From: Patescibacteria group bacterium
Lineage (GTDB): Bacteria > Patescibacteriota > Minisyncoccia > Phycocordibacterales > Phycocordibacteraceae
DNA: 64,000 nt
Assembly (NCBI GenBank): GCA_038064495.1
Contig: JBBTSZ010000004.1
Coordinates: forward strand, 5,363 to 69,362
Reading direction: 5' to 3'
Below the pieces are notes generated by a model, which saw only the letters and a program-made list of their open reading frames with translations, was not told the DNA's origin and ran no database searches. The first letter of the stretch is position 1. The number at the start of each line of letters is the position of its first letter. Of this stretch, positions 31,094 through 56,570 are shown one piece after another. The position numbers and the translations under genes were made by a program.

Positions 31094-31201
31094 TCTGAAA
31101 GGTACGTGCCAGGCTGAAACCGCCATAACAGCAATTCAGTTTGAATAGATACGACAGCCTATTTAGACAAAGCCTTATTTTATCTATATAATTTGCCAAT
31201 T

Positions 31202-32233
31202 ATGAAAGCAGCCGTCCTTGAGACGCTTAATAAACCTCTTGTTGTGGGAGAGGTCACGCTGACTCCTTTGACTCCAGGCCAAGTACTCGTCAAGAATCTG
31301 GTCACGGGTATTTGTGGGGCTCAGCTCGAGGAGATACAGGGCCATAAGGGTAACGCGAAATTCGTTCCACATCTCTTAGGGCATGAGGCATGTGGCATTG
31401 TGGAGGACATCGGTCCTGAGGTACAAAAAGTTAAAAAAGGAGACAAAGTAGTACTGCACTGGAGAAAGGGAGAAGGCATCGAATCAGATTTTCCGAAATA
31501 TATCTACAAGGGAAAAGAAATATCAAGTGGGAAGGTAACAACATTTAGCGAGTACACTATTGTTTCTGAAAATCGGGTAACGCCGGTACCGCACGACACT
31601 CCGAATGATCTTGCTGCGCTACTTGGATGTGCACTTTCTACGGGACTTGGTGTGGTGAGCGGAGCTGCCAAGGTTCAGCCTGGTGAATCCGTCATCATCA
31701 TTGGGGCTGGGGGTGTTGGTTTGAATCTTATACGAGCAGCAGTACGAGCCGGTGCGAATCCCGTCATAGCGGTTGATATCGCAGACAAAGAAACACTGGC
31801 AAAAAATGTGGGCGCCCATTTTTTTATTCATTCAGGTAAAACCGGTCTCGCTGACGGATTAGAGAGCGTGGCAGGTATCAAGAACGTTGACGTGATTATC
31901 TCTACCGTTACTGATAAGAAAACCGCTGAAGAGGCACTTCCACTCCTCGCCCCCTCGGGCAGATATGTGATGGTTGGACAGCCTGTTCCGGGAGAATCTC
32001 TTGAAATTACGAATGCGTTTCATTTCCATGAGGGAGAAGGGAAGGTTCTCATGGGTACCCAGTCCGGAGGTTTTAATCCTACCCGTGACATTCCGAGATA
32101 TCTCAAAATGGCACAAGAGGGTGAGGCTACTATCGACGGAATTATCACGAAGCGCATCAAACTCGACCAAATAAATGAAGCTATTGATGAGATTCGTGCA
32201 GGCAAGGCTGGCAGAATCATGATTGATTTCTAA
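31202..32233 (+). CDS. Zn-dependent medium-chain alcohol/polyol dehydrogenase
   Basis: GHEACGIVEDIG zinc-ligand motif; Rossmann GAGGVGLNLIRAAVRAGA. Confidence 0.7.
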   Translation: MKAAVLETLNKPLVVGEVTLTPLTPGQVLVKNLVTGICGAQLEEIQGHKGNAKFVPHLLGHEACGIVEDIGPEVQKVKKGDKVVLHWRKGEGIESDFPKYIYKGKEISSGKVTTFSEYTIVSENRVTPVPHDTPNDLAALLGCALSTGLGVVSGAAKVQPGESVIIIGAGGVGLNLIRAAVRAGANPVIAVDIADKETLAKNVGAHFFIHSGKTGLADGLESVAGIKNVDVIISTVTDKKTAEEALPLLAPSGRYVMVGQPVPGESLEITNAFHFHEGEGKVLMGTQSGGFNPTRDIPRYLKMAQEGEATIDGIITKRIKLDQINEAIDEIRAGKAGRIMIDF

Positions 32234-32234
32234 T

Positions 32235-33191
32235 ATGAGTACGAACCTAAAGGCATACAAACGAATGCTCTACCTACGGCTCGCTGAACAGGAGCTCGTT
32301 AAGATGTATCTGGATAAGAAGATTTTCAGCATGGTGCATTTTTATGTGGGCCAGGAAGCGGTTGCAGTCGGCGTGTGTGAAGCGCTTACTCCAGAAGATA
32401 AAGTGCTCGGCAACCACCGTTCGCATGGACACTATCTTGCAAAGGGAGGAAACTTCAGAAAGATGGTGAGTGAACTTCTGGGAAGAGCTGATGGCGTTGC
32501 TCACGGCAAAGGGGGTTCCATGCATATGATAGATAAGTCCGTGAATTTCGTCGGCTCTACACCACTCCTCGGGAGCGTTGCGCCTATTGCAGCAGGCGTT
32601 GCCTTCGAGCAGAAATACAACGGTCGCGATGACGTTACCGTCGCATTCTATGGGGACGGTGCATCGGAAGAGGGAGTTGTTTACGAAACGTACAATCTCG
32701 CTGCGCTGTATGAGGTACCACTCCTGCTTGTCGTTGAGAATAATTTCTTTTCCATAAACTCACGTGCACGCGAACGCAGGCCTCAAGGATATGATCTAGA
32801 GAAGATTGTTACAGGATTCGGGATTCCCTTTATGCGTGCTGACGGCAATGACTATGAAGATGTGAATACCAAAGCTGCGAAACTTTTAGAAATGGTACGC
32901 CGTGAGAAGCGTCCGGCAGTGCTTGAATGCCTCACGTTCCGTCACATGGCGCACTCTACGCCTCTGATGGAGGAGAAATATCGTGAGCATGATACGGCAG
33001 AGGTTCGTGAAGCAAAGGACCCGCTTACCAAGATGAAAAAAGATATCCTCTCAAGCGGAGTATCTCAAGCGGAACTTATTTCAATGGAAGAAGGACTGCG
33101 TGAAGAAATCGCGAACGATATTGCAGAAGCAGAGAAAGCCGCATTTCCCACGCGAGAAGAGATGTTTACCGATATGTACTACACCGAATAA
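32235..33191 (+). CDS. TPP-dependent 2-oxoacid dehydrogenase E1 alpha-like subunit
   Basis: TPP-binding YGDGASEEGVVYETYNLAALYEVPLLLVVENN. Confidence 0.7.
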   Translation: MSTNLKAYKRMLYLRLAEQELVKMYLDKKIFSMVHFYVGQEAVAVGVCEALTPEDKVLGNHRSHGHYLAKGGNFRKMVSELLGRADGVAHGKGGSMHMIDKSVNFVGSTPLLGSVAPIAAGVAFEQKYNGRDDVTVAFYGDGASEEGVVYETYNLAALYEVPLLLVVENNFFSINSRARERRPQGYDLEKIVTGFGIPFMRADGNDYEDVNTKAAKLLEMVRREKRPAVLECLTFRHMAHSTPLMEEKYREHDTAEVREAKDPLTKMKKDILSSGVSQAELISMEEGLREEIANDIAEAEKAAFPTREEMFTDMYYTE

Positions 33192-33193
33192 GT

Positions 33194-34222
33194 ATGAGCG
33201 ACCGAATCCTCAAATACACAGAAGCTCTCAGGGAAGCAACCGCGCAGATGCTCGCGGAAAATGATCAGGTGTTTGTCATAGGTCTTGGTGTTCCGCAGGG
33301 CGCAGCAGGCACAACTATGGGCCTAAAAGATGAGTACCCCACGCGCGTGTTGGATACACCTATTTCAGAAGGTGCACTTACCGGTCTTGCGGTGGGTGCG
33401 GCCATCTCCGGCCTACACCCGGTGGTCTACCATGAGCGTGTAGAGTTTGCGCTTGTGGCGGCAGATCAGATATTCACACAGGCGGCAAAGTGGAACTACA
33501 TGTTCGGTGGCGACAACCCTGTACCATTAACACTACGCGTCGCAGTAGGGCGCAAGTGGGGCAATGGTCCTCAGCACTCGCAGGCACTCTACTCTCTGTT
33601 CGGTGCAGTACGAGGTTTGAAGGTGGTTATTGCGTCCACTCCATACATGGCGAAAGGACTCCTCATATCTGCAATACGCGATAAGAATCCTGTCATACTG
33701 CTGGAGAATCTCTGGCTGTATCAGGTAAAGGAGGAAGTTCCTGAAAAAATGTACGCACTTCCTCTTGATAAGGCGAGAGTTGCACAAGAGGGAACCGATG
33801 TCACCGTCGTTACGTACGGGGACGGATTCGTGGACTCTCTTTCTGCACTTACACTCCTTCCGAAAGACATCTCCGTAGAACTCATAGATCTCGTGTCCAT
33901 TAATCCAGTGGATTATGACACTATTGAACAGTCCGTACGAAAGACCGGTCGGCTCATAACGGTAGATACGACCAACGCCGCCTTCAGCGTGGGTGCTGAA
34001 ATCATTGCCAAGATGACCGAGCGAGCTATTCCGCTCTCGAGTACGCCGATTGCGATTGCAACTCCTGATGTGCCAGTACCCACCTCGTCCGCCCTCCTGG
34101 AATTCTATTACCCTACCAAGGTAGACATCGCGAATGCAGTGCTCAAAATGCTTAACAAGGAAGCCCTTGAAACCAAACTCTCCTTTGAAGAGTTACATTT
34201 AGCACCAAGCCACACCCTGTAA
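33194..34222 (+). CDS. TPP-dependent 2-oxoacid dehydrogenase E1 beta-like subunit (transketolase-like)
   Basis: 342 aa; typical E1beta N-terminal pyrimidine-binding and C-terminal domains; immediately follows E1alpha. Confidence 0.7.
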   Translation: MSDRILKYTEALREATAQMLAENDQVFVIGLGVPQGAAGTTMGLKDEYPTRVLDTPISEGALTGLAVGAAISGLHPVVYHERVEFALVAADQIFTQAAKWNYMFGGDNPVPLTLRVAVGRKWGNGPQHSQALYSLFGAVRGLKVVIASTPYMAKGLLISAIRDKNPVILLENLWLYQVKEEVPEKMYALPLDKARVAQEGTDVTVVTYGDGFVDSLSALTLLPKDISVELIDLVSINPVDYDTIEQSVRKTGRLITVDTTNAAFSVGAEIIAKMTERAIPLSSTPIAIATPDVPVPTSSALLEFYYPTKVDIANAVLKMLNKEALETKLSFEELHLAPSHTL

Positions 34223-34226
34223 TGTC

Positions 34227-34970
34227 ATGAAAAAAATCCTCGTCATCGGAGACAGTTGTCGCGACGTTTTCGTGTACTGCCATGCCCAGCGCCTTGCGCC
34301 CGATTTGCCGGTGCCTATTCTTGATGTACATGAAGAAACAGAAAACCCCGGCATGGCAATGAATGTTCTCCGAAATATTCAGGCTATTCACGATGGAGCA
34401 GATATCGCGACAAATCGTGAATGGGAAAAAGTCACCAAGACTCGGTATGTCCACCACAAAACAAACCACACATTCATTCGTATTGATTCTAAGCACCCTA
34501 CAGAACCGATTCTTCTTGATGAAGTACCACTTAACGACTACGACGTGATTGCTATATCTGACTACAACAAAGGATTTCTTACCGAAAAAGATATTGAGAC
34601 TATTTGTAAGAATCATGCGTGTGTATTTATTGATACCAAGAAACAGCTTGGTACGTGGGCTGAGGGTGCTACGTACATCAAGATTAATGATTTTGAATAC
34701 GAACGGTCCAAACATGCACTCACTCCAACTCTAGAAGAGAAGATTATTCGTACTGAAGGTTCCGCTGGTGCAGTGTACAGAGGTAAGCGCTATCCCGTGT
34801 CCAAGAAAGTGGAGGTTCGAGATACCACCGGCGCAGGCGACAGTTTCTACGCAGCACTTTTAGTGAAATACGCCGAGACGGGAGATATCGAGGAGGCAAT
34901 ACAGTTTGCAAACGAGTGTGCTCGCCGTACCGTAATGCAAAAAGGGGTCTCACTCATTGAGCGTCCATAA
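34227..34970 (+). CDS. PfkB-family carbohydrate kinase (HldE/RfaE domain I-like, heptose-7-phosphate kinase candidate)
   Basis: DTTGAGDSFYAALL PfkB signature; 247 aa. Confidence 0.6.
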   Translation: MKKILVIGDSCRDVFVYCHAQRLAPDLPVPILDVHEETENPGMAMNVLRNIQAIHDGADIATNREWEKVTKTRYVHHKTNHTFIRIDSKHPTEPILLDEVPLNDYDVIAISDYNKGFLTEKDIETICKNHACVFIDTKKQLGTWAEGATYIKINDFEYERSKHALTPTLEEKIIRTEGSAGAVYRGKRYPVSKKVEVRDTTGAGDSFYAALLVKYAETGDIEEAIQFANECARRTVMQKGVSLIERP

Positions 34971-34973
34971 TAT

Positions 34974-35474
34974 ATGGGAAAGATAGCCACACTTGAAGAA
35001 GTATTGAAAGCAACACAAAAGGCACGTAAGCAGGGAAAGAAAATAGTTGCTACCAATGGCTGCTTCGATATCCTTCACGTAGGACATGTGCGCAATCTTC
35101 AAGCCGCCAAGAAACTCGGCGACATTCTTATTGTAGGTGTAAACTCTGATGCATCGGTACGACAGAATAAAGGTTCACTTCGGCCCATCGTTCCAGCTCG
35201 TGAGCGGGCAGAGGTCATCGCCGCTCTTGAGGCAGTTGACTACGCTTTCATTTTTTCAGGAAAGACTCCACTTGGTTGGATAGCTAAGATTAAACCGGAC
35301 TTTCACGTAAAGGGTGGGGGAGCGGACGTAAAGGCCCACCCAGATTTTCCTAAGCACGAGGAAGTGGTGAGGAAGGAAGGAGGAAAGCTGATTCTCTTGA
35401 AACATCACCACGGACGTTCAACATCCACGATTATAGAGAAAATAGTAGAAGCTGAAAAAAGGAAGAAAACCTAA
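34974..35474 (+). CDS. D-beta-D-heptose 1-phosphate adenylyltransferase (HldE/RfaE domain II-like cytidylyltransferase fold)
   Basis: GCFDILHVGHVRNLQAAKKLGDILIVGVNSDASV closely matches RfaE domain II. Confidence 0.75.
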   Translation: MGKIATLEEVLKATQKARKQGKKIVATNGCFDILHVGHVRNLQAAKKLGDILIVGVNSDASVRQNKGSLRPIVPARERAEVIAALEAVDYAFIFSGKTPLGWIAKIKPDFHVKGGGADVKAHPDFPKHEEVVRKEGGKLILLKHHHGRSTSTIIEKIVEAEKRKKT

Positions 35475-35487
35475 TTATATCGGCTAT

Positions 35488-35516
35488 TTGACTTACACTC
35501 GCATATGTGCTATGGT
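35488..35516 (+). promoter_or_regulatory. Sigma70-like promoter (TTGACT-17 nt-TATGGT) upstream of NUDIX gene; GGAG RBS at 35551
   Basis: Read directly from sequence. Confidence 0.45.
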
Positions 35517-35560
35517 CCAGATTAGAATACTAGACTGTTCTCATATCTAGGGAGTTTGAA

Positions 35561-36073
35561 ATGGATCATGAAATGGTGGGTGAGGTCGTCTTTTCGGGAC
35601 ACTTTCTTACACTGACCATCGAAAAGCGCGATACCCTTACTTTTGAGCGTTGTTATCAACGCAATGGTGTCTCGGTCATTGTGGTGCCTGAACCAGGCAA
35701 AATTCGACTCATCACTGAAAAGGATTGGGAAGACGGTCTTTCCAAGACCAAGGTGGTTAGCGCCTACCGTGAGGACGGCGAAGACCCTCTTGCCTGTGCC
35801 AAGCGCGAACTGCAAGAAGAAATGGGCTTCACCGCGGAAAATTGGGAACTGTACCATGTCTCCAAGAGCGACGGCGCTATCATCAAGGACCAGCACTACT
35901 ACGTTGCAACCGGTCTCACCGAGGTTGGTGCGAAGCCAGACGAAGATGAAACTATCTTCTACTGGCGGGATTTCTCATTTGAGGAAATCCGCGAGAAGTC
36001 GCTTTCGCTCGGCTTCGGAACGCACGAAAATGCGTTCGCCCTTCTCAGGTTTGTTACTGAAGTACGGGAGTGA
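35561..36073 (+). CDS. NUDIX hydrolase (nucleotide-sugar/ADP-ribose pyrophosphatase-like)
   Basis: Nudix box GEDPLACAKRELQEEMGF. Confidence 0.75.
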   Translation: MDHEMVGEVVFSGHFLTLTIEKRDTLTFERCYQRNGVSVIVVPEPGKIRLITEKDWEDGLSKTKVVSAYREDGEDPLACAKRELQEEMGFTAENWELYHVSKSDGAIIKDQHYYVATGLTEVGAKPDEDETIFYWRDFSFEEIREKSLSLGFGTHENAFALLRFVTEVRE

Positions 36074-38518: not shown

Positions 38519-39520
38519 ATGCAACCTATGATTACGGCTTTTCTCAAAGATAAGGTGGTTCTGGTGACCGGAGGTACCGGTACGTTCGGTAACGCCTTTG
38601 TGAAGAAGGTTCTTGCTGAGAACCAGATTAAGAAACTGATTATCTTTTCACGTGACGAATTGAAACAAAGTCAGATGCAGGCTTCTATAGAAGACCCGCA
38701 CAAAAAACTCCGGTTCTTCCTCGGAGATATCCGTGATTTGCCGCGCCTTAATCAAGCATTTCATGGAGTAGATTATGTTGTTCATGCCGCTGCCTTGAAA
38801 CGAGTTGATGCACTTGAATACAATCCGTCTGAAGCCATCAAAACAAATATCCTTGGAGGTCAGAATGTTATTGATGCAGCGCTCGCGAACAACGTGACTA
38901 AGTGCCTCCTTATTTCTACTGATAAAGCAGTTCAGCCGATTAACCTCTATGGTGCAACAAAACTTGCTGCCGAAAAACTCTTTGTTGCAGCGAACGCATA
39001 CCGGAGTCCTTCACAGAACACCGCATTCGGCGTTGTGCGGTATGGAAACGTCGTCGGTAGCCGTGGGAGTTTTATAGAAATGATTAAGACTCAGCGAGCG
39101 ACGGGTGTCATCACCCTTACCCACGAAAAGATGACGAGGTTCTGGATAACCATAGACAAGGTGATGGACGTGATTATTGAGAGTCTCGACCGGCTCCAAG
39201 GAGGAGAGACTTTTGTGCCGAAGATGGGGAATATGCCGGTCGTTGATGTGATTAAAATGCTTACTCCTGAATGTGAGATTAAGACAATTGGTATGCGCCC
39301 AGGTGAGAAACTCCACGAAGTGCTCGTTACCGAATATGAAGCACCGCGTACCAAAGATGGAGGAACAACCTTTATTGTGAAGCCCGAACAAGACTTCGTT
39401 GCCTCCTATTGCGGATGGCTCGACACACTTCCCGAAGCAGAAAAAGACTTTATTTTTGCAAGTGACAATCCTACATTCTTGCTCACGCAACCAGAAGCTG
39501 AAAAGATTCTCAAAATCTAA
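38519..39520 (+). CDS. pseB: UDP-N-acetylglucosamine 4,6-dehydratase (inverting), PseB/FlaA1 family
   Basis: VLVTGGTGTFG; IIFSRDELKQ; YGATKLAAEKLFVAAN; VVRYGNVVGSRGS; RFWIT; MRPGEKLHEV. All collinear with H. pylori FlaA1/PseB. Confidence 0.8.
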   Translation: MQPMITAFLKDKVVLVTGGTGTFGNAFVKKVLAENQIKKLIIFSRDELKQSQMQASIEDPHKKLRFFLGDIRDLPRLNQAFHGVDYVVHAAALKRVDALEYNPSEAIKTNILGGQNVIDAALANNVTKCLLISTDKAVQPINLYGATKLAAEKLFVAANAYRSPSQNTAFGVVRYGNVVGSRGSFIEMIKTQRATGVITLTHEKMTRFWITIDKVMDVIIESLDRLQGGETFVPKMGNMPVVDVIKMLTPECEIKTIGMRPGEKLHEVLVTEYEAPRTKDGGTTFIVKPEQDFVASYCGWLDTLPEAEKDFIFASDNPTFLLTQPEAEKILKI

Positions 39521-40224
39521 CTACCAGTATAGGTAATGTCTTCGTCATCAAGTCGTCGGTAGGGCTTTTCGTTTTGTATTTCCTCAAGGGCGTGCGCCAT
39601 CATTCCCGGCATGCGACCGAATGCGAAGAGCGGTTTGCCGAGATGTGGGTCAAGTCCGAGCTCAAGCATAAGTGCTGCTATGGCCCCATCAATATTGAGC
39701 GGGAGGTGCTTTCCGGTCGCGACCGCAAGTTCCTTTTCAATTAAACGTGCTTGTTCAACATGTACCCCTGCGATTCCGAGCTCTGTCGCAGCCTGAAGGA
39801 GTTGCTGCGCACGCGGGTCAGCATCCTTATAGACTTTGTGTCCGTAGCCCGGAAAGCGTGAACGCTCTGCAAGTACTTTCTCCACTGAGGTCTTCGCCTG
39901 AAAGTACTGTGCCGCCGCTTCAATAGCACCACCATGGTGGTCTCCTGTTGCGAGAATGCCTGCCGCAATGGCCACATGGAGCGGGTTACCCACTGAGGCC
40001 GATACGCGAGCACTAAATGCCGAAGGAGCCTGGACCCCATGCTCACTCATGGAAACGAGCATCATATCGAAGAGTTTTTGTTCGGTATCTGAAGGAAGTC
40101 TTCCAGAAAGAAGGAGGAAGGAAACCTCTGAAAAGGAATGGTCTCGGACCAGTTCTGAAAGGGAGATGCCCCGTACTACAAGTTGGCCCTCTTTTGTCGT
40201 GCTAATAGCGGTGTTCCATTTCAT
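39517..40224 (-). CDS. Citrate-synthase-family small protein (citryl-CoA lyase-like)
   Basis: TGDHHGGAIEA (citrate synthase GPLHGGANEA) and GYGHKVYKDADPRA (GFGHRVYKxxDPRA). Confidence 0.6.
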   Translation of the reverse strand: MKWNTAISTTKEGQLVVRGISLSELVRDHSFSEVSFLLLSGRLPSDTEQKLFDMMLVSMSEHGVQAPSAFSARVSASVGNPLHVAIAAGILATGDHHGGAIEAAAQYFQAKTSVEKVLAERSRFPGYGHKVYKDADPRAQQLLQAATELGIAGVHVEQARLIEKELAVATGKHLPLNIDGAIAALMLELGLDPHLGKPLFAFGRMPGMMAHALEEIQNEKPYRRLDDEDITYTGS

Positions 40225-40227
40225 ACG

Positions 40228-41124
40228 TTATGTAAGTATACGCTTAAGGGCAGGAGAGATTTCTTCAACCGTGGAAACGATGGTGACGCCAGCAGCAGTG
40301 AGTGCTTGCACTTTAGAGGCATAGCTTCCACGGCCTTTCGCTACGATGGTTCCCGCGTGACCAAGTACTGTGCCGTCAGTGAGTGTGTCTGCAAACTCTC
40401 CAGCGATGAGGGCAACAACAGGTTTGGAGAAAGAATTCTTTTTAATATAGTCAGCAGCTTGCTCCTCATAGGTACCGCCCACCTCTCCGAAGAGAACAAC
40501 GGCTGTCGTTTCAGCATCCTCAGCAAACAAGGTAAGGAGGTCAGTAAAATCGGAACCGATAAGAATGTCAGCACCAATACCTACAGCCGTTGACTGACCC
40601 AGTCCGGCGTTCGTCAGCGCGAGTGCAATCTCACTCGTCATTCCCCCTGATTTTGAAAGCACCCCAACAGAACCAGGTGAATAGACCTTCACCATCTCCC
40701 CAGAACCAATACTTCCAATCTTTGCTTTACCGGGAGAAATGATGCCAACCGACGAAGGGCCGACGACTCGTATGCCACACCTCCTCGCTTCAGCAAGCAT
40801 CCGGGCGGTGTCCTGTGTAGGAATATGTTCGGTCAGAATTACCACAAGCGGAATAGAGGCTCGTATAGATTCAAGTGCAGCGTCCATTGCAAATCGTGCT
40901 GGAACGACAACGAGGGACGTATTTATCTCGGGATGAGCAGTGAGTGCCTCAGCAACCGTGTTGTAGACCGGCACACCTTCCACCATCTCACCTCCTTTGC
41001 CGGGTGTGACGCCCGCAAGCACGGGTGTGCCGTATGCAAGAGACTCTCGACAGGTGCGTGCACCTTCATTCCCGGTGACGCCTTGTATCAAAAGTCGTGT
41101 CTCCTTGTCGATGAGGATGCTCAT
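40228..41124 (-). CDS. Succinyl-CoA synthetase alpha-like CoA-binding subunit (ATP-citrate lyase / citryl-CoA synthetase small subunit-like)
   Basis: LIQGVTGNEGARTCRESLAYGTPVLAGVTPGKGG; phosphohistidine loop LGHAGTIV. Confidence 0.7.
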   Translation of the reverse strand: MSILIDKETRLLIQGVTGNEGARTCRESLAYGTPVLAGVTPGKGGEMVEGVPVYNTVAEALTAHPEINTSLVVVPARFAMDAALESIRASIPLVVILTEHIPTQDTARMLAEARRCGIRVVGPSSVGIISPGKAKIGSIGSGEMVKVYSPGSVGVLSKSGGMTSEIALALTNAGLGQSTAVGIGADILIGSDFTDLLTLFAEDAETTAVVLFGEVGGTYEEQAADYIKKNSFSKPVVALIAGEFADTLTDGTVLGHAGTIVAKGRGSYASKVQALTAAGVTIVSTVEEISPALKRILT

Positions 41125-42179
41125 ACCGTTTTGTACGCAAGCGTCACCATAGTTGTTGCGGTGTCCTTCATGCTCGTCGTTGCGTCAAACAAATGAATAT
41201 CAAATCCTTCCTCTTGGGCAGCATCCTGGAGCATACGAAATGCTTCTTCACGCCGTGGGCCATCCCGGCGTATGACAATAGGGAAGGTTGGCTTCACTTC
41301 ACGCAATGCCTCAAGAAAGCCGGACATGGTTTCATAAATATCCGTAAAGTTCGCCGCGGCACCAACGACCCAGCACCCACGGAGTCCGGGATGCGATAGA
41401 ACTCGCAGGGTTAGTTCCTTAACGACCGACGCGGGAGGATTCCCCGAGTATTCCGTATAGTTTGCCGGTTTGCCTCCTGCACGAATGAGCGTGTCCATGT
41501 TTAAAAGGGAAGCGCCTCCACCAGACGCGAGAATGGCAATGTCCCCCGTGAGGGTCAGGATACGTTTCTCGCCGGGAGCAACTCTTTCGTCATCAGTTTG
41601 AATCTTAGCGTCGCCCGCAACGAGGCCACCGGCTGTTTCAAAAAGCGGATTGATTTCCGCCACAAGCGCGTATTCGTCAATAAACAATTTCCAGAGCTTC
41701 TGAATAACGTCTGAGAATTCTGAATGAACCTCTTTAGGAATATCAGCCGCGGTGTACGCCATGCTGAGGAGTTTGTCAGTAAGGCCTTCGAGAATGGAGA
41801 TGGGTGTGGTGTGTGCATCACTAATTCCCGTTCCTCCAGTTCGTGAGAGTGATAGAACTGGTGCTCGCGTATCTGTGTCGTACGAGAAACTCACATAATA
41901 TTCGTTCGTTGCCTGCACTCGTTCCTCTACAAGGATGTGTTCAACAGGCTCACCGGAAATCTCCTTCGAAAAGAGCGTCGCGAGCCCTTCCTCGGCCTCA
42001 GCCTGGTTTTCTGCAAAGATAATGCCCCCAGCCTTCATGCGGTCGCCAGAGCGCACCTGAGCCTTCAGTACGACCGGGAAGCTGGAAAGGGTGGTAGGAG
42101 CCTCAAGAAGGCTCCCCTCCGGTACTGGGATGCCATAGGAGGTGAAGAGTGCCTTTCCTTCAAATTCTCGGAGCCTCAT
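41121..42179 (-). CDS. Succinyl-CoA synthetase beta-like ATP-grasp subunit (ATP-citrate lyase / citryl-CoA synthetase large subunit-like)
   Basis: REFEGKALFTSYGIPVP, EINPL, ASGGGASLLNMDTLIRAGGKPANYTEYSG collinear with SucC; start chosen at MRLREFEG. Confidence 0.65.
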   Translation of the reverse strand: MRLREFEGKALFTSYGIPVPEGSLLEAPTTLSSFPVVLKAQVRSGDRMKAGGIIFAENQAEAEEGLATLFSKEISGEPVEHILVEERVQATNEYYVSFSYDTDTRAPVLSLSRTGGTGISDAHTTPISILEGLTDKLLSMAYTAADIPKEVHSEFSDVIQKLWKLFIDEYALVAEINPLFETAGGLVAGDAKIQTDDERVAPGEKRILTLTGDIAILASGGGASLLNMDTLIRAGGKPANYTEYSGNPPASVVKELTLRVLSHPGLRGCWVVGAAANFTDIYETMSGFLEALREVKPTFPIVIRRDGPRREEAFRMLQDAAQEEGFDIHLFDATTSMKDTATTMVTLAYKTV

Positions 42180-42259
42180 AGTTAGGAAAACTATACCCCA
42201 GGCTGATACGTTGCGACACAAAACTTTTACCGCTCCTCGTGGTTCTATATACTGTATAT

Positions 42260-42805
42260 ATGGAAGCAAAAGCCTTTCTTGAAGGAGATACACTCATACT
42301 CCGACCACTCGCTATCAGCGACTTGGAAGGGGCTTATATCTCGTGGCTGAATGACCCGGAGGTGAATGCTCATAACTCGCACCACGTGTTTCCGTATACA
42401 GAGGCTCAGGCACGAGCTTACGTGGAGCGGGTGAGTACTGACGAACACAATCTTGTGCTTGCAATCGTCGCAAAAGATTCAAAGACTCATATTGGGAATA
42501 TTTCTCTGCAACACATTGATTTCGTTTCGCACTCGGCCGAATATGCCATTCTCATAGGCGACCGCGCGTATTGGGGAAAGGGCGTGGCTGCTGAAGCATC
42601 AAGGCTTTTGCTGAAACACGGATTCACTGCACTCAATCTCCATCGTATTTATTGCGGGACTAGTTCTGAAAATATTGCCATGCAGAAACTCGCAGCAAAG
42701 CTCGGATTTGTTGAAGAGGGGAAACGCCGAGAAGCCCACTATAAGAATGGAGCCTATACTGACATCATTGAGTACGGTCTTCTCGCCTCAGAATTCTCTG
42801 CATGA
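42260..42805 (+). CDS. GNAT-family N-acetyltransferase (RimL-like; PseH candidate)
   Basis: GNAT core IGDRAYWGKGVAAEASRLLLKHGF; about 181 aa; alternative GTG start at 42239. Confidence 0.6.
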   Translation: MEAKAFLEGDTLILRPLAISDLEGAYISWLNDPEVNAHNSHHVFPYTEAQARAYVERVSTDEHNLVLAIVAKDSKTHIGNISLQHIDFVSHSAEYAILIGDRAYWGKGVAAEASRLLLKHGFTALNLHRIYCGTSSENIAMQKLAAKLGFVEEGKRREAHYKNGAYTDIIEYGLLASEFSA

Positions 42806-43992
42806 TTCCCGAAGACGCAACACCGCTTTTTCCGCACCTTATGTACTGCACTCGTTGTTGTATACCTGAGACTCAAGAAGGAATTGATTTTGACGAGCTT
42901 GGTATCTGTAAAGCATGTCGTTCTTCCGAACAGAAAATACACATCGATTGGGTGGCGCGTGGTAAACAGCTCGAAGAGATACTTGCCGATGCAAAAGCAA
43001 AAGCGGGAGATAACTATGACTGCATCATTCCAATAAGCGGTGGCAAGGACAGTACGTTTCAACTCCACGTACTCACGAAGGTGTATGGCATGAAGCCACT
43101 GGCCGTGACCTTCAGTCATAATTGGTGGAGTGAGAGTGGGTGGTACAACTTACAAAACGCGCTCGAAAAATTCAACGTTGACCACATCGCCTTCACACCG
43201 AACCGTGCCCTTATTAACCGGCTTACCAAACATTCTGTTGAAGGTATCGGAGACGTTAGTTGGCATGATCATGCTGGTGTAGGTTCGTTTCCGCTTCAGA
43301 TGGCTGTGAAATACAACATTCCGCTTTTGATATGGGGTGAATCAATAGCAGAGTCCTCGGGCCGTGCTTCATATGACGATCCGGTCCATAAGTTTGACCG
43401 TGATTATTTTCTTAAAGTATCGGCGAAACTTGCTCCGGACGAAATGGTAAATAAAGACGTTACTTCACGTGACCTGTATCCATTTGTAGTACCGTCTGTC
43501 GAAGAAGTAGAAAAAACTGGCGTTTGGGGTCTTCACTTGGGTGATTACTTATTTTGGGACGAAGAACGTCAGACGGAGTTTATTCGAGATACGTACGGTT
43601 GGCGCGAAACGGAAATGGAAAACGCCTATAAGCGGTACAAGAGCGTTGAGGACATCATGAGTGGTATGCATGACTTCACGTGTTATCTAAAGCGCGGGTA
43701 CGGACGTGCCACCTACCAGGCCTCCATCGACGTGCGCAACGGATTACTCACGCGCGAGGAAGGCTTTCAACTTATTCGGAAACACGACACGGAACGACCG
43801 GAGGCTCTCGACTACTATCTGAAAGTGTCAGGCTCTACTGAGGAAGAATTCTATGCCACGATGGAAAAGAAGCGTCACTCAAAGATGGTAGGAATCAATA
43901 TACCCGTGCACCCTAAAACACATAAAAGCGAAGAGCGCATACTGCCATTTCCGGAGCAATTGATTGAAAAGTTCGACACGAACCATGAATAA
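42802..43992 (+). CDS. N-acetyl sugar amidotransferase (PP-loop ATPase; WbuX/PseA family)
   Basis: N-terminal Cys-rich CTRCCIPETQ…CKACRS; PP-loop IIPISGGKDST. Confidence 0.7.
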   Translation: MIPEDATPLFPHLMYCTRCCIPETQEGIDFDELGICKACRSSEQKIHIDWVARGKQLEEILADAKAKAGDNYDCIIPISGGKDSTFQLHVLTKVYGMKPLAVTFSHNWWSESGWYNLQNALEKFNVDHIAFTPNRALINRLTKHSVEGIGDVSWHDHAGVGSFPLQMAVKYNIPLLIWGESIAESSGRASYDDPVHKFDRDYFLKVSAKLAPDEMVNKDVTSRDLYPFVVPSVEEVEKTGVWGLHLGDYLFWDEERQTEFIRDTYGWRETEMENAYKRYKSVEDIMSGMHDFTCYLKRGYGRATYQASIDVRNGLLTREEGFQLIRKHDTERPEALDYYLKVSGSTEEEFYATMEKKRHSKMVGINIPVHPKTHKSEERILPFPEQLIEKFDTNHE

Positions 43993-45322
43993 ACTTTTTA
44001 TCGAGAACTCCATCAATACACTTGTCGAAAAGCTTCACAGAGGAGCACTTCGACCCGAGGACCTATCGAATGCAACGCGTGAGAACATCTCTGAGCTCGA
44101 CTCGAAGTATCATGCGTTTGTCGTGTCGGCGGACAAGGGAGAGATGCTACGTATGCAACAGACCTCCGCCGGGAAAGGATTGTTCGCGCATGTTCCCGTT
44201 GGCGTAAAAGACATCTACAACACGGCCGATTTTCCAACACAGATGGGAAGTGCGTTATGGAAAAATTTCAAACCAGGCAACGATGCGCGCAGCCTCTTTA
44301 ATTTAAAGCGAGAAGGTGCGGTCGTGGCGGGGAAGACGGTCACGGCTGAGTTTGCCGTACATGCACTGAATGAAACCCTGAATCCCTACGACGTAACCCG
44401 TACGCCGGGCACATCTTCATCGGGTTCCGCTGTCGCGGTTGCGCTCGGCATGGTGCCGTTTGCTACTGGCACCCAGACGGCAGGGTCCATCATCCGTCCT
44501 GCGAGTTTTTGTGGTATCTACGGTATGAAGCCGTCCTTCGGATTTATTCCCCGCACGGGTGTACTGAAGACTACCGACAGTCTCGACACGCTCGGATTTT
44601 TCAGCGTGCATCTCGAGGATTTGAGGCGAGGCTTCGATGCCATGCGCGTTCATGGTCTTGACTACCCGATAAGCAACGTCGCCATAACGGACACGACGCG
44701 ACAGCAGAAGCGGGAAGGTCGCCCCTGGCGCGTCGGCTTCGTTCGCACTCATACCTGGGACGATGCTGAACCATACGCACAAGAGGCGTTCCTTGCGTTT
44801 GCGAAAAAACTTGGTGAGGAACGTGGTTTTGAAGTCGTTGACGCAACACTTCCGGAGCTGCTGCGGCAAGCGCACGAGACGCACGAGACCATATATGACA
44901 AAGCTCTCTCGTATTATTTCCAAAACGAGTACAAACATGCCGAGGACATTTCTCCCGTGATGCAGGAGATGATAGAGAAAGGGAAGGCGATTACGCCCGA
45001 GATGTACCAGGTGGCACTCGCTCGTCAGAGCGAGATGCTCTACGCGATGGACGAATATCTCAAAGAATTCGAGGTGCTTATCACACTTTCGACTGCGGGC
45101 GAAGCCCCGCTTCGTGAAGTGCGCGAGAAGCCAGACTCGTCTCTCATATGGACACTTACGCATCTTCCGGTGGTCGGCGTACCAGCATTTCGCTCACCGG
45201 ACAATCTCCCGTTCGGGTTTCAAGTGGTCGCACGCAAATACAACGACTACCTCCTACTCTCGTTCCTCGACACACTTCGTGAACGGAACCTTATTCCTGC
45301 GCGAGCCGGGTATTTCCTATGA
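43985..45322 (+). CDS. Amidase-signature family enzyme
   Basis: [45 protein letters not shown] amidase signature; 8-nt overlap with upstream gene. Confidence 0.7.
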   Translation: [445 protein letters not shown]

Positions 45323-46158
45323 AAGTTCTTGTACCAGGTTCGCGCGGTCTTTTAGGGACTACACTTACGGCAGTATTACAAAGTCAGCGACATGAAGTAA
45401 TTATCTTTGAAGGAGATATATCTGATGAGCAGAATGTAAAAGAGCAGGTACGTCACACATCGCCGGACGCCATTGTGAATGCATCTGCTATTGCGGATGT
45501 AAAAGTCTGTGAGGAGGAACCGGAGAAGGCAAGGGCAGTAAATGCGCTCGGCCAGAAATATCTCGTCGAAATGGCACAAGAGCTTTCGATTCCAATTATC
45601 TATATTTCCACGGTGTCAGTATTTAACGGAGAAGGAAATTACAAAGAGGATGATATCCCGAATCCACAGAATGTTTACAATAAAACCAAAAGAGAAGGCG
45701 AGCTACATACCCTTGCATACCAGAAGGGAATCGTGGCTCGTGTAAATATAATAGGTATTCATCGAAACGGTTCACGCGGGAAGGCGTTCCTTGAATGGAT
45801 GATTGATACGATAAAGGCTAATAAGGATCTGACTTTGTACACAGACTCGCGAATCAATCCATTATCAAATATCACCTTATCAGATCTCATACTCAAGCTA
45901 CTGGAAAGGCCTCCTGAGTATCAGATTATCCATCTAGGCTCTAAGGATGTGATATCGAAGGCAGATATCGGTGAGATGGTGTTGTCATATTTTCCTGAAT
46001 ACGCTGGTGAGGTGACGCGAACCCCTCAGTCAACCCAGTCAACGCAACCAAGGGAGATGTGGCTGAATGTGGAAAGAGCCGCAAAGCTGTTCGGCCCTCT
46101 TCCCTCTGTTTCAGAGGAGGTTCAGAAAATATTGCTTAATAAGAATGTTGCTTCCTAA
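45319..46158 (+). CDS. RmlD-like NAD(P)-dependent sugar 4-ketoreductase (dTDP-4-dehydrorhamnose reductase family)
   Basis: MKVLVPGSRGLLGTTL; YNKTKREGE (YxxxK). Confidence 0.6.
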   Translation: MKVLVPGSRGLLGTTLTAVLQSQRHEVIIFEGDISDEQNVKEQVRHTSPDAIVNASAIADVKVCEEEPEKARAVNALGQKYLVEMAQELSIPIIYISTVSVFNGEGNYKEDDIPNPQNVYNKTKREGELHTLAYQKGIVARVNIIGIHRNGSRGKAFLEWMIDTIKANKDLTLYTDSRINPLSNITLSDLILKLLERPPEYQIIHLGSKDVISKADIGEMVLSYFPEYAGEVTRTPQSTQSTQPREMWLNVERAAKLFGPLPSVSEEVQKILLNKNVAS

Positions 46159-46186
46159 GCTCTTGGCGCGAGGTTATACTCGGTAC

Positions 46187-47278
46187 ATGAACAGGCAACC
46201 GATCAAAATAGGAAACCGTTTAGTGGGTCCGGGGTATCCGGCCTACATCATTGCCGAGATAGGCTCCAATTTTGACGGCGATCTTGAGAGGGCAAAAATG
46301 CTCGCTAAGATGTCCAAAGACGCGGGAGCAGACGCGTATAAGATTCAAAACTTTCTTGCTCCAAAGATTGTCTCCGCAGAAGGATTTAAAGACCTCCAAG
46401 TAGCCTTCCAGGCAAAATGGGACAAACCGGTAGTGGAAGTATATAAAAACGCGGAGTTTCCTCGTGAATGGGTAAAAGAAGTTGCAGACTACTGCAAAGA
46501 AATCGACATCGAATTCTTCTCTAGTCCGTATGACGAAGACGCAGTGGACCTCCTCGAAGAGCTTGGTGTGGCCGCTTACAAGGTAGGTTCAGGGGAAATA
46601 GATAATCTCGAGTTCATTACGCGTATTGCAAAGACCGGAAAGCCAGTCATTATTGGCGCAGGAGCCGCAACGATAGAAGAAGTTGAAGATGCGATACGTA
46701 CCGTACGCCAGGCGGGGAATGAACAAATTGTTCTTCTCCAGTGTGTTACGAATTATCCTTCACCTATGAAAGACGCAAACTTGCGTGCCATGGTCGCGAT
46801 GGGCGAACAGTTCAACGTACTCTACGGATACTCTGACCACACTATAGGTACCGCAGGCGGAGGAGATGACCCGCTAAACGGCATCACCGTTCCTTTGGCG
46901 TCGGTTGCACTTGGCGGTTGCCTCATAGAAAAACACGTTACGGATGACACTACTCGAAAGGGTCCAGACCATCCCTTCGCTATGGTCATCAACGGAAACT
47001 TCAAAGATATGATTGCTGGCGTACACGCCCTTGAATCCGCCCTTGGTGACGGACATAAGGGGCTCACGTCATCCGAAACGGAGACGTCCGTTATTCAGCG
47101 CCGTGGTGCGTACGCACTGCGGGACATTACGTCGGGAGAGACTATCACCCGAGCTGATTTCGAGTACCTGCGACCGGCAGTAGGCATTCGTCCTCGCGAA
47201 GCAGGAACACTAATTGGTGGAATTGCCAGCCGCGATATTACGAAAGGGAAGCCCATAAAGAATGATGACCTCGCCTAA
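46187..47278 (+). CDS. pseI: Nonulosonic acid synthase (NeuB/PseI/LegI family) with C-terminal SAF domain
   Basis: YIIAEIGSNFDGDLERAKML (canonical NeuB IIAEIGxNHNG); about 364 aa from ATG 46187; ORF-track 5' extension rejected. Confidence 0.75.
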   Translation: MNRQPIKIGNRLVGPGYPAYIIAEIGSNFDGDLERAKMLAKMSKDAGADAYKIQNFLAPKIVSAEGFKDLQVAFQAKWDKPVVEVYKNAEFPREWVKEVADYCKEIDIEFFSSPYDEDAVDLLEELGVAAYKVGSGEIDNLEFITRIAKTGKPVIIGAGAATIEEVEDAIRTVRQAGNEQIVLLQCVTNYPSPMKDANLRAMVAMGEQFNVLYGYSDHTIGTAGGGDDPLNGITVPLASVALGGCLIEKHVTDDTTRKGPDHPFAMVINGNFKDMIAGVHALESALGDGHKGLTSSETETSVIQRRGAYALRDITSGETITRADFEYLRPAVGIRPREAGTLIGGIASRDITKGKPIKNDDLA

Positions 47279-47927
47279 CGAAAAAGTTATTGCCGTCATA
47301 CCGGCCTATAACGAGGCAAAAACAATCAGGAGGGTCATAGAAGGACTACGTCCTTACGTTTCCTCCGTTGTTGTCGTGAACGACGCTTCAAAAGACGAAA
47401 CGGAGAATGAGGCGCACGCTGCGGGCGCCACGGTAGTGTCGCACAAAGTTAACCAAGGATACGACACCACTATTAATGATGGATTCAAGAAAGCTGCGGA
47501 AGAAGGTGCAACCATTATTCTTACGTTCGATGCCGACGGCGAACACGAGCCAACTGACGTGCCGCGCATTCTTGCACCTATTCGTGAAGGAAAAGCAGAC
47601 TTGGTACTCGGCCAAAGGCCAGAGAGTCGCCACTTCGGTGAGCGAGTACTCGCCAGCTATACAAAGGCGAGGTATGGAATTCCTGACCCACTCTGCGGAC
47701 TGAAAGCATATAAGCGAGAAATCTATAACCGTGTGGGTTTTTTTGATTCGGTCTCGTCCATTGGTTCAGAACTTTCGCTTCGCGCGATACGTCTCGGGTA
47801 TAATCCTGCTCTCGTCCCGATAACACTTCACGCGCGGGAGGTAGGAGATACGTCTCGGTTCTACGAATTTAATCTACGGGGTAACATGCGAATACTTATG
47901 GCATTGTGGCGCATACTATGGATATGA
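47262..47927 (+). CDS. Small glycosyltransferase family 2 protein
   Basis: VIAVIPAYNEAKTI…VVVVNDASKDET. Confidence 0.55.
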   Translation: MMTSPNEKVIAVIPAYNEAKTIRRVIEGLRPYVSSVVVVNDASKDETENEAHAAGATVVSHKVNQGYDTTINDGFKKAAEEGATIILTFDADGEHEPTDVPRILAPIREGKADLVLGQRPESRHFGERVLASYTKARYGIPDPLCGLKAYKREIYNRVGFFDSVSSIGSELSLRAIRLGYNPALVPITLHAREVGDTSRFYEFNLRGNMRILMALWRILWI

Positions 47928-48925
47928 AAACCTATCGAGGCGTCGTTATAGGGTGCGGAAAGGTGGGCGCCACCTTCGAAATGGATACCGGTCTTGTGAG
48001 GCCTGCCTCACACGCAGCCGCGCTTGTGGCGCACCCGCAAACAGAACTCGTCGCGCTTGTAGACCCCATGCCTGAGGCACTCGAACGCGCTGGAGGATAC
48101 TACAAGGTGCCTACCTATACTGATGCCGAGACATGCTTCACAGCAATGAAGCCGGATATTGTCATCATCGCGACTCCACCACCTACGCATGAAGCAATGC
48201 TTGCTCTCGCATTTGCGCATAACATTCCTGCTGTAATTTGTGAGAAGCCCGTGGCAGATACTCGTGTAGAAGCAGAACGTATGATTGATGCGACCGCGAA
48301 GGCTTCCACGCTCGTTATTGTTAATCATCAGCGCAGATTCTTTCCTCTGTTTATTGACGCTAAGGAGCGTATTGCAAAAGGAGAGCTAGGACGGGTGCAA
48401 CAAATAACGGCATACTACACTAATGGTCTTACCAATAACGGTACACACACACTTGATGCGATTGCATATCTCATCGCTGACCATGCTACGTGGGTAGTGG
48501 GGGTACGTAACGAAAAGAACACTACAGCGCCATTCAGCACGAACATCGATGGACTTGTCGGGTATGCGGGTGGAGCTGTCGCAGCAATACAGAGTCTTGA
48601 TAACGACTCATACGGGGTTCACGATTTCCGTATATACGGAACGGAGGGGGTCCTCACTATCGGGCAGTACGGCTATGCCTTTTCTCGAACACCTGTCGCA
48701 GAAGGCATAACGTTTGCCGGCGTCAAAGAGCCAGACTGGGAACACTCGGTGAACGAGCTTGATAAACGGAGCATGCTCCTCGGGACCCTTGCCCATACAG
48801 TGGAATGCTTGGAGCGAGGCACCCCGCCACGTAGCACCCTTTCCGATGGTTATCAGACTATGCAGGTACTCGAGGCGCTTACCGAGAGCGCAGACAATGG
48901 AGGCCAGCGCATTACCATTTCATAG
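47918..48925 (+). CDS. Gfo/Idh/MocA-family oxidoreductase
   Basis: YRGVVIGCGKVGATF; ICEKPVADT. Confidence 0.65.
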   Translation: MDMKTYRGVVIGCGKVGATFEMDTGLVRPASHAAALVAHPQTELVALVDPMPEALERAGGYYKVPTYTDAETCFTAMKPDIVIIATPPPTHEAMLALAFAHNIPAVICEKPVADTRVEAERMIDATAKASTLVIVNHQRRFFPLFIDAKERIAKGELGRVQQITAYYTNGLTNNGTHTLDAIAYLIADHATWVVGVRNEKNTTAPFSTNIDGLVGYAGGAVAAIQSLDNDSYGVHDFRIYGTEGVLTIGQYGYAFSRTPVAEGITFAGVKEPDWEHSVNELDKRSMLLGTLAHTVECLERGTPPRSTLSDGYQTMQVLEALTESADNGGQRITIS

Positions 48926-48931
48926 TTTTCC

Positions 48932-50221
48932 ATGGATATCGAAGCTCCAGCCATTCTTGGCGGCACACCCGTTCTTACGACTCCTCTACCACCTACGCAC
49001 AATGTGGGTGAGGAAGAGGTGCGTGCTACTACGCGCGTTCTCATGGGCGGCCCACTTTCCGGTTTCATCGGTACCGTTGGCGCGAGGTTTCTTGGGGGGG
49101 CGGAAGTCCAGCGTTTCGAAGAGGCATTTCGCGAATATTTTGGGGTGAAGCACGCGGTTGCATTTAACTCAGGCACTACCGCGCTTCATGCGGCGATTGC
49201 CGCACTCGGTATTGGGCCGGGTGATGAGGTCATTGTCCCACCGTACTCTATGGCCGCGTCTGCAGTATGTGTCGTGAACAATGGTGCCATACCCGTGTTT
49301 GCAGACATCGACCCAAAGACGTTCACTCTCGACCCAGAATCAGTGAAATCAAAAATCACGAAGTACACCAAAGGCATTGTGGTCGTGAACTTGTTTGGTC
49401 AGGCTGCAGACCTCGATGCCATCATGACCATCGCAAAAGACCACAACCTCAAGGTGCTTGAGGATAATGCGCAGTCACCGCGCGCCATGTACAAGGGAAA
49501 ATATGCAGGCACCATTGGAGACGTGGGCATGTTCAGTTTCAATGTGAACAAAGTTGCGCAGTGTGGAGAGGGTGGGGTGGTGGTTACGAACGATGACACC
49601 TACGCACTTCGTGCGCAGCTTATGCGCAATCACGGCGAGTCAGTGGTGGACGATTTACCTGACTACGATGCTGGACCTATATTCGGCAGTAACTACCGCA
49701 TGACGGAACTCGAGGCTGCCATCGCGTACGAGCAGCTGCAAAAGCTCGAACATTTCAATGCGCGCAAAGTTGAGCTTGCTGAATACCTCACGAGTCAGTT
49801 GAAGGATATTCCTGGGATAACGACTCCGTTTATTCCAGAAGGGAACACCCATGTGTATTTCCAGTACGCACTCAAAGTCGATGTAGAGAAAACAGGCATC
49901 TCGCGCGACAAGCTCGTTGAAGCAATGGCTGCCGAGGGATTCCCCATGGCACGCGGCTACGTGAAGCCCATTTATCTTCTGCGTATGTTCCAGGAGCGCA
50001 AGGCGTTTAACGATACTCATTTCCCCTTTGAGTACGATGGATATCAGGGCAACCCCGACTACTCGAAGGGGTCGTGTCCAGTTGTGGAGCGCATGTACGA
50101 AACGGAGCTTACCTCTAGCATGCTCTGTCAGTTCCCACGCACAAACGAACACATCGACTTGTTCGTGTTCGCATTGAAACGAGTGTTAGCAAACGCAGAG
50201 GCAGTAATGAAAGGAGCATGA
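48932..50221 (+). CDS. pseC: DegT/DnrJ/EryC1/StrS-family PLP aminotransferase (PseC-like)
   Basis: Family-typical length (429 aa) and pattern VIVPPYSMAASA…FSFNVNKVAQCGEGG. Confidence 0.65.
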   Translation: MDIEAPAILGGTPVLTTPLPPTHNVGEEEVRATTRVLMGGPLSGFIGTVGARFLGGAEVQRFEEAFREYFGVKHAVAFNSGTTALHAAIAALGIGPGDEVIVPPYSMAASAVCVVNNGAIPVFADIDPKTFTLDPESVKSKITKYTKGIVVVNLFGQAADLDAIMTIAKDHNLKVLEDNAQSPRAMYKGKYAGTIGDVGMFSFNVNKVAQCGEGGVVVTNDDTYALRAQLMRNHGESVVDDLPDYDAGPIFGSNYRMTELEAAIAYEQLQKLEHFNARKVELAEYLTSQLKDIPGITTPFIPEGNTHVYFQYALKVDVEKTGISRDKLVEAMAAEGFPMARGYVKPIYLLRMFQERKAFNDTHFPFEYDGYQGNPDYSKGSCPVVERMYETELTSSMLCQFPRTNEHIDLFVFALKRVLANAEAVMKGA

Positions 50222-56552: not shown

Positions 56553-56570
56553 TCTCTTCTGACTTTTTCC

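Follow-up and report, generated by a model that had tools for sequence, protein, structure and literature searches.

The window analysed here is a stretch of 64,000 nucleotides (64 kb) from an ultra-small groundwater bacterium in Patescibacteria (CPR, the Candidate Phyla Radiation), positions 5,363 to 69,362 of contig JBBTSZ010000004.1 (assembly GCA_038064495.1); coordinates below are those of the window. Its minus strand carries three consecutive genes, called here the trio, for a SucC-like beta subunit, a SucD-like alpha subunit and a citrate-synthase-like protein of 235 amino acids (aa). The three open reading frames (ORFs) are present where a previous sequence-only reading of this DNA placed them, and their domain matches are far beyond chance. 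Family assignments, motifs and phylogeny point to a predicted system for ATP-dependent cleavage of citrate made of a citryl-CoA synthetase (CCS) and a citryl-CoA lyase (CCL), that is, a split ATP-citrate lyase (ACL). The locus comprises the following features:

41121-42179, minus strand: beta subunit gene, 352 aa from its ATG in the ORF list, with an ATP-grasp domain and an ACL-type citrate-binding domain.
40228-41124, minus strand: alpha subunit gene, 298 aa, with CoA-binding and phosphohistidine (GHAG) domains.
39517-40224, minus strand: predicted citryl-CoA lyase (Ccl) gene, 235 aa, covering the catalytic two-thirds of the citrate-synthase fold.
42180-42259, no strand: divergent intergenic region of 80 bp, read from the sequence, between the beta start and the start of a GNAT acetyltransferase gene.

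The mechanical ORF of the beta gene is longer and reaches a GTG at 42293. The N-terminus read from the ATG at 42179, MRLREFEGKALF, aligns with the N-terminus of Escherichia coli SucC, MNLHEYQAKQLF, and the NCBI gene call likewise has 352 aa; we therefore take this ATG as the real start. The sequence-only reading had overlaps of 4 nt at the consecutive junctions. One is found between the beta stop and the alpha start (ATGA, 41121-41124), but the alpha stop and the lyase start are separated by a 3-nt spacer (TAA-cgt-ATG). The lyase gene also overlaps tail to tail, by 4 nt (39517-39520), with a convergent PseB-like gene. The 80-bp divergent region could hold a promoter shared by the trio and the GNAT gene. 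Its single sigma-70-like match, on the plus strand at 42226-42253, is not above shuffle level. Since a promoter and terminator scan of 39300-42500 gave matches no more numerous than in shuffled sequences, we make no regulatory claim for this interval. Scans for tRNAs and Rfam families returned no matches in the 64-kb window.

The 235-aa protein matches the Pfam family Citrate_synt (3.6e-45), the best stretch aligning residues 44-223 to profile positions 162-355 of 357. It is a short citrate-synthase-fold protein and lacks the N-terminal region of citrate synthases. The NCBIfam model NF004869 (citryl-CoA lyase) is matched over residues 2-234 with 244.5 bits, above its cutoff of 212, and NCBI names the protein 'citryl-CoA lyase'. 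The model TIGR01800 (2-methylcitrate synthase/citrate synthase II) gives 111 bits (5e-32) for a cutoff of 421. The top PDB match is the Ccl of Hydrogenobacter thermophilus (6hxp; 6.9e-57, 196 bits, 45% identity); citrate synthases in the PDB score 105 bits at most and the lyase module of ACL, where the protein aligns to AclA residues 368-594, scores 60 bits.

The motifs previously noticed in this protein, GDHHGGA and GYGHKVYKDADPRA, are present, as is GHAG in the alpha subunit. Equivalents of the catalytic His/His/Asp triad of GltA (H265, H306, D363) are invariant in 44/44 lyase family members. The same holds for the equivalents of the oxaloacetate-site arginines R315 and R388 (E. coli numbering) and for the Arg at family position 224, also an oxaloacetate-site equivalent, while the position of R408 is Arg in 38/44. 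Forty-two aligned homologues of ~235-250 aa have a mean column identity of 63%. A neighbour-joining tree, built with limited references and without ACL lyase-module sequences, sets the family and the H. thermophilus Ccl apart from citrate synthases (14 sequences; 100/100 bootstraps) and places that Ccl inside the family. These results support the assignment of the 235-aa protein as a citryl-CoA lyase, predicted to cleave citryl-CoA to acetyl-CoA and oxaloacetate.

The beta subunit, named 'ATP-grasp domain-containing protein' by NCBI, has Pfam matches to ATP-grasp_2 (1.4e-30) and to PF16114 Citrate_bind, the citrate-binding domain of ATP-citrate lyase (3.6e-23). Its best full-length PDB match is H. 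thermophilus CcsA (6hxq_B; 4.3e-39, 138 bits), followed by Thermus SucC with 127 bits. The C-terminal domain alone matches Chlorobium AclB with 87.8 bits, CcsA with 77.3 and human ACLY with 55; SucC proteins score lower (Thermus 49.9 bits, others including E. coli 29-40). Two NCBIfam SucC models stay below their cutoffs (167 bits for 375.55 and 164.6 bits for 370). The citrate site displays the motifs GGGAS, EYSGNP, ANFT and RRDGP, shared with Chlorobium AclB and human ACLY, at positions where SucC has GAGLA, DVGGGA, FGGIVR and VRLEG. These ACL-type motifs are near-universal in the 45 family members aligned with the references: GGGAS/GGGGS and RRxGP are kept in all, E[YH]SGxP in all but L052 and ANFT in all but L042 and L043 (L numbers designate individual loci). 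By alignment they correspond to human ACLY G281-S285, G309, N346-T348 and R379. Equivalents of SucC K46, E197 and D213 are retained. In a neighbour-joining tree of the C-terminal domain, the SucC references, just two succinyl-CoA synthetases (SCS), stand apart from the family together with AclB, CcsA and ACLY in 200/200 bootstraps.

The alpha subunit, a 'CoA-binding protein' for NCBI, matches CoA_binding (2.7e-23), Ligase_CoA (3.9e-15) and Succ_CoA_lig (7.8e-13) in Pfam. SucD structures give its best PDB hits (241-290 bits overall; 2yv2, 2.9e-85, 290 bits), ahead of CcsB (6hxq_A; 7.2e-63, 216 bits) and of AclA residues 1-314 (6hxj_B; 6.8e-47, 164 bits). As for beta, the scores against two NCBIfam SucD models lie below the cutoffs (301.5 for 353.2 and 298.8 for 336). 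Neither GHAG nor GE(I/V)GG varies among 44 family members. An ADP-forming acetyl-CoA synthetase was also considered and rejected: TIGR02717 gives 81.7 bits for a cutoff of 567, against 301.5 bits for SCS-alpha.

The lyase cutoff and tree, the Citrate_bind domain, the motifs and the sub-cutoff SCS scores support the view of the trio as an unfused, three-polypeptide system predicted to cleave citrate at the expense of ATP, of CCS/CCL (split ACL) type. This upholds the identification made in the sequence-only reading, and so do the two checks that accompanied it, the phylogeny against characterised enzymes and the conservation of citrate-binding residues.

The trio is widespread. The same gene is found in Hainich groundwater assemblies, and Parcubacteria-type CPR lineages commonly carry lyase homologues with 48-68% identity. 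About 45 true relatives came out of a scan that took one genome from each species. In CPR they belong to Kaiser-, Colwell-, Nomura-, Ryan-, Niyogi-, Davies-, Staskawicz- and Andersenbacteria and to Microgenomates, in DPANN archaea to Aenigm-, Woese-, Nanohalo- and Nanoarchaeia, and in Acidobacteriota to two metagenome-assembled genomes. The beta-alpha-lyase order on a single strand is kept in essentially every related locus with upstream DNA, in CPR, DPANN and Acidobacteriota; SucCD-like neighbours are absent from the citrate-synthase loci of the same scan. Small non-conserved genes are inserted between alpha and lyase in L023, L025, L030, L032, L033, L045 and L048, which are Microgenomates-type loci and some archaeal ones. 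By eye, these insertions include BrnT/BrnA-like and HEPN/MNT-like toxin-antitoxin pairs and aspartic-protease-like, NUDIX, membrane and four-helix-bundle genes. This spacer looks like a hot spot for insertions that break up the operon, and its ORFs were rejected as parts of the system on inspection by eye, being non-conserved.

The trio is embedded in a glycan island. The 64-kb window is one long island of this kind that ends at MurB-SecA and holds many glycosyltransferases, a UDP-glucose dehydrogenase, a WbuX amidotransferase, an ABC exporter and Wzy_C. It includes a pseudaminic-acid-like set composed of a PseB-like protein, a DegT aminotransferase, a NeuB-type synthase and a CMP-sugar synthetase-like protein. 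The genes on either side of the trio are:

38519-39520, plus strand: PseB-like UDP-GlcNAc 4,6-dehydratase, convergent with the lyase gene; 333 aa in the NCBI call.
42260-42805, plus strand: GNAT N-acetyltransferase of 181 aa (Acetyltransf_3, 1.2e-30), divergent from the trio at a distance of 80 bp.
42802-51006, plus strand: genes for sugars of nonulosonic-acid type, downstream of the GNAT gene, named from Pfam and NCBIfam labels.

The position between pseB and the GNAT gene noted in the sequence-only reading is thus correct, with the PseB-like protein falling just under the TIGR03589 cutoff (398 bits for 407.75, 2.6e-119; Polysacc_synt_2, 1.3e-89). The GNAT protein matches the PseH model weakly (37.8 bits for a cutoff of 93.1), and it most likely consumes acetyl-CoA locally in a PseH-like role. 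The block 42802-51006 codes in order for a WbuX amidotransferase (TIGR03573, 340.8 bits), an amidase (Amidase, 1.5e-67), an RmlD-like reductase, the NeuB-type synthase, a GT2 protein, a GFO/IDH oxidoreductase, the DegT aminotransferase and the CMP-sugar synthetase-like protein. The GatA-like amidase follows WbuX (42802-45322; also 4791-7375 in L004) in place of the usual HisH/HisF-like WbuY/WbuZ and may be an alternative ammonia donor for an acetamidino sugar.

Other segments of the island were noted. At 31193-36073 lie genes for a zinc-dependent alcohol dehydrogenase (ADH), the E1 alpha and beta subunits of a 2-oxoacid dehydrogenase without E2 and E3, a PfkB kinase, a cytidylyltransferase and a NUDIX protein. 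An ADH-E1alpha fusion and E1beta are found near the trio in another CPR locus (L006, 1-2297). The window set may make a two-carbon branch or CDP-activated polyol decoration. The segment 7-10125, which is upstream of the glycosyltransferase block, codes for a number of very large proteins whose CARDB matches are weak or faint and then for a TrwB/TraG-like coupling ATPase. Wzy_C, MurB and SecA close the island both here (53093-59276) and in a Ryanbacteria locus (L005, 12239-20726), and the place of the island on the chromosome appears to be conserved.

A survey of 49 non-redundant loci of 20 kb each reveals synteny enrichment of hexosamine and acetyltransferase genes around the trio. GlmS, GlmU-like, GNAT and MBOAT proteins make up 17% of the neighbours at ±1, 12% at ±2, 5% at ±3, 2.5% at ±4 and ~1.5% at ±5-6, and 0/206 at a distance of seven genes or more. 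The recurrent partners are:

GlmS (797 bits): immediately upstream of the trio in 6 loci, including an archaeal one (Nanoarchaeia).
Archaeal-type bifunctional GlmU (TIGR03992, 256 bits, just under cutoff): near the trio in 13 loci.
UDP-GlcNAc-binding YvcK homologue (331 bits, above cutoff): near the trio in 8 loci.
Small GNAT: directly downstream of the trio in 3 loci.
Acetyltransf_3 GNAT: divergent, upstream of the trio, in the window, L004 and L035.
MBOAT with a conserved gene of unknown function: directly downstream in 3 loci and nearby in 2 more.
AT3 acyltransferase: directly upstream of the trio in one archaeal locus.

Four unrelated acetyltransferase families (GNAT, hexapeptide-repeat GlmU-type, MBOAT and AT3) are partners of the trio, in separate clades of bacteria and archaea. 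The GNAT-WbuX-amidase block divergent from the trio is found also in Kaiserbacteria (L004), and the GNAT at position -1 in L035 is homologous to that of the window. The small GNAT downstream of Ccl in L009 and L013 was compared with GNA1-type GlcN-6-P acetyltransferases; it matches human GNA1 with 4e-4 only, among many other GNATs.

Further genes adjoin the trio in particular loci. A conserved protein of ~370-420 aa always follows the trio-adjacent MBOAT (L006, 12185-13336; L027, 14492-15670; L011; L034). It has no Pfam or NCBIfam match and is likely a partner of the MBOAT O-acyltransferase. In L031 (5751-7954) and L033 (2743-4955), the genes directly upstream of the trio code for a Kbl-like glycine C-acetyltransferase (444.8 bits for a cutoff of 460) and a Tdh-like threonine dehydrogenase. 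This pair adjoins a GlmU-like gene; it would provide a second acetyl-CoA route, from threonine to glycine and acetyl-CoA. The Ryanbacteria loci L005 (3499-8004) and L015 have in the same position a DmpF-like acylating acetaldehyde dehydrogenase, a DmpG-like aldolase, a thiamine pyrophosphate enzyme and an epimerase, which is another set of acetyl-CoA-touching enzymes inside a glycan cluster. A major facilitator superfamily (MFS) transporter (PF07690) directly downstream of the lyase gene in L035 (10693-11874) and L051 (515-1684) is a candidate carboxylate importer.

By homology to ACL, CCS and SCS, the beta ATP-grasp domain would bind ATP, which would phosphorylate the histidine of the alpha GHAG loop. 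The phosphate would move to citrate, the presumed substrate, in the C-terminal domain of beta to give citryl phosphate, and its attack by alpha-bound CoA would form citryl-CoA. The 235-aa lyase, with its citrate-synthase His/His/Asp triad, would then produce acetyl-CoA and oxaloacetate, cleavage being the presumed direction of the reaction. The module would work outside the reductive tricarboxylic acid (TCA) cycle, on citrate taken from a host or the environment, and its acetyl-CoA would feed acetylation of amino sugars and surface glycans. This acetyl-CoA would be consumed in the window by the divergent GNAT, as part of the pseudaminic-acid-like pathway; relatives would use the archaeal-type GlmU for N-acetylation of glucosamine phosphate, the small GNATs, or the MBOAT and AT3 proteins for O-acetylation. 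We lean towards this hypothesis of a CCS/CCL (split ACL) module acting as a local acetyl-CoA source for sugar and surface-glycan acetylation, and consider it somewhat probable. Supply of acetyl-CoA for sugar N-acetylation had already been proposed in the sequence-only reading. The recurrence of the trio beside GlmS, GlmU-like, GNAT, MBOAT and AT3 genes elsewhere speaks for this part of the proposal; the role itself is what the association suggests. We put forward with more doubt, as a tentative extension, that in CPR and DPANN the trio forms a separate kind of unfused ACL-like enzyme, combining an ACL-type beta, an SCS-like alpha and a free Ccl, that converts host citrate into the acetyl groups of UDP-GlcNAc and surface glycans and is an analogue of the pre-fusion stage of ACL.

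Several observations weigh against a role of the trio in glycan acetylation or against its assignment to citrate. The activity of the CPR/DPANN clade is a prediction from sequence. The beta residues aligned with the ACLY citrate site are reportedly those that bind citrate in the structure of Sun et al. 2010 (PDB 3MWD); docking studies of ACLY only mention Asn346, Thr348 and Arg378/379. The ATP-grasp half of beta is slightly nearer to SucC (79 bits) than to CcsA (60 bits), and alpha is nearer to SCS-alpha than to CcsB. Neither a citrate transporter nor an oxaloacetate-consuming enzyme is found in the 64-kb window, and the transporter adjoining the trio in only two related loci is an uncharacterised MFS protein. 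The surveyed loci are related to one another, so that the neighbour counts are not independent events, and in ~23/49 no acetyltransferase or hexosamine gene was recognised up to three genes away. Nor is there an obvious need for a dedicated citrate route, because reviews state that many CPR make acetyl-CoA from pyruvate (PMC9698310).

The trio could instead cleave scavenged citrate to provide the cell as a whole with carbon and acetyl-CoA, its position in the island being incidental or due to operon shuffling. Such a central-metabolism role was proposed for the two-subunit ACL of a CPR Gracilibacterium (PMC6851277) and fits the housekeeping neighbours found at many loci (LeuRS, TrpRS, FtsH, GlyA, FolD, Sua5) as well as those ~23/49 loci, which have no recognised acetyl-CoA-using sugar gene that close. 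It does not account for the steep gradient of GlmS, GlmU-like, GNAT and MBOAT genes from ±1 outwards nor for four unrelated acetyltransferase families adjoining the trio in separate clades of both domains, and we judge it unlikely. A different possibility is that the synthetase and lyase act on another hydroxy acid, such as 2-methylcitrate, citramalate or malate, to deliver a non-acetyl acyl-CoA for decoration of a nonulosonic acid. A sequence by itself does not reveal specificity, 2-methylcitrate synthases are members of the citrate-synthase family and TIGR01800 matches the lyase, and nonulosonic acids carry varied N-acyl groups. The near-universal ACL motifs of beta and the invariance of most oxaloacetate-site arginines of the lyase argue against it, together with a citryl-CoA-lyase model above cutoff when the methylcitrate model remains at 111 of 421 bits. 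In addition, the commonest partners of the trio are GlmS and GlmU-type proteins, where the acyl group is acetyl. This alternative is improbable, and the unusual acyl donor for nonulosonate imagined in the sequence-only reading finds no support.

The module might also run in reverse, from acetyl-CoA and oxaloacetate through citryl-CoA to citrate and ATP, and so stand in for citrate synthase while conserving energy. In favour of this, the ACL reaction lies near equilibrium and the window has no canonical citrate synthase. The recurrent neighbours, however, consume acetyl-CoA and not citrate, and neither aconitase nor isocitrate dehydrogenase is found in the window or the surveyed flanks. Most CPR have no TCA cycle to use the citrate (PMC9698310), and reverse operation is in our opinion quite improbable. 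That the genes encode an ordinary SucCD beside a truncated or degenerate citrate synthase, as TCA-cycle remnants, was suggested by the SucD proteins that are the best PDB matches of alpha and by the SCS models that are the top NCBIfam matches of alpha and beta. These models score below cutoff (alpha 301.5 < 353.2; beta 167 < 375.55), the C-terminal domain of beta is of ACL type with the SucC substrate-loop motif replaced, and the 235-aa protein belongs to a conserved full-length family that includes a characterised Ccl. True citrate-synthase loci, for their part, lack adjoining SucCD-like genes. A plain SCS with a citrate-synthase fragment, rejected by family cutoffs, motifs and tree, is extremely improbable.

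The trio is not a new enzyme class, since CPR and DPANN homologues were already placed with CCS/CCL in a 2022 preprint (10.1101/2022.10.25.513756), the same placement as here. Enzymes of this family have been described before, with solved structures; the physiological context of the trio is plausibly new. A full-text literature search found no paper tying the trio to hexosamine or glycan acetylation. What is added here is the conserved linkage to hexosamine and glycan genes and the unfused architecture, colinear with ACL and with ACL-type motifs. Reconstructions of CPR and DPANN metabolism tend to take genes that resemble SucCD or citrate synthase for stray remnants of the TCA cycle, and NCBI names only the lyase specifically, leaving the synthetase subunits with generic names; recognition of the three genes as one citrate-cleaving module alters this reading. 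The location of the trio beside GlmS, GlmU-type, YvcK and sugar acetyltransferase genes offers a testable answer to the origin of acetyl groups in the cell envelope and makes citrate a candidate host-supplied metabolite. If this is true, cell-envelope acetylation of an episymbiont would depend directly on a TCA metabolite of its host. For enzyme evolution, the trio represents a widespread natural CCS/CCL system, unfused and ACL-colinear, with ACL-type citrate-site motifs. It could be a living counterpart of ATP-citrate lyase as it stood before the fusion evolved.

Among known systems, CcsA/CcsB and Ccl of H. thermophilus (6hxq, 6hxp) are likewise three separate polypeptides. Their Ccl falls in the same clade as the trio lyase, with the 45% identity reported above, CcsA is the best full-length PDB match of the trio beta subunit and the alpha phosphohistidine loop is common to both. 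CcsA differs in length (429 aa versus 352 aa) and has DIGG and ANNT where the trio has the ACL-type EYSG and ANFT, and the trio alpha is nearer to SCS-alpha than to CcsB. The settings also differ: the trio lies in a glycan island and not in a context of carbon fixation by the reductive TCA cycle, and its host is a CPR bacterium that most likely, as most CPR, has no TCA cycle. SucCD shares fold and phosphohistidine mechanism with the trio alpha and beta subunits. These stay under the SCS cutoffs, have an ACL-type beta C-terminal domain and are always genetically linked to Ccl.

The gene order beta, alpha, lyase is colinear with aclB-aclA of Chlorobium (6hxj), AclA being an alpha subunit fused to a lyase, and AclB is the best PDB match of the trio beta C-terminal domain, with identical citrate-site motifs. 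In the trio, alpha and lyase are separate, as in the other surveyed loci, and differ from an AclA-style fusion just by a stop codon and the absence of the ~50-residue AclA linker. The trio lyase is far nearer to free Ccl, with 196 bits as against 60 bits for the lyase module of ACL. In CPR, ACL was noted sporadically, as in the Gracilibacterium of Sieber et al. 2019 (PMC6851277), whose putative two-subunit enzyme would generate acetyl-CoA and oxaloacetate from external citrate. That ACL is a fused two-gene system, described as rarely detected in CPR and assigned to central carbon metabolism; the trio is made of three genes, spans Parcubacteria, Microgenomates and DPANN, and is tied to sugar-acetylation genes.

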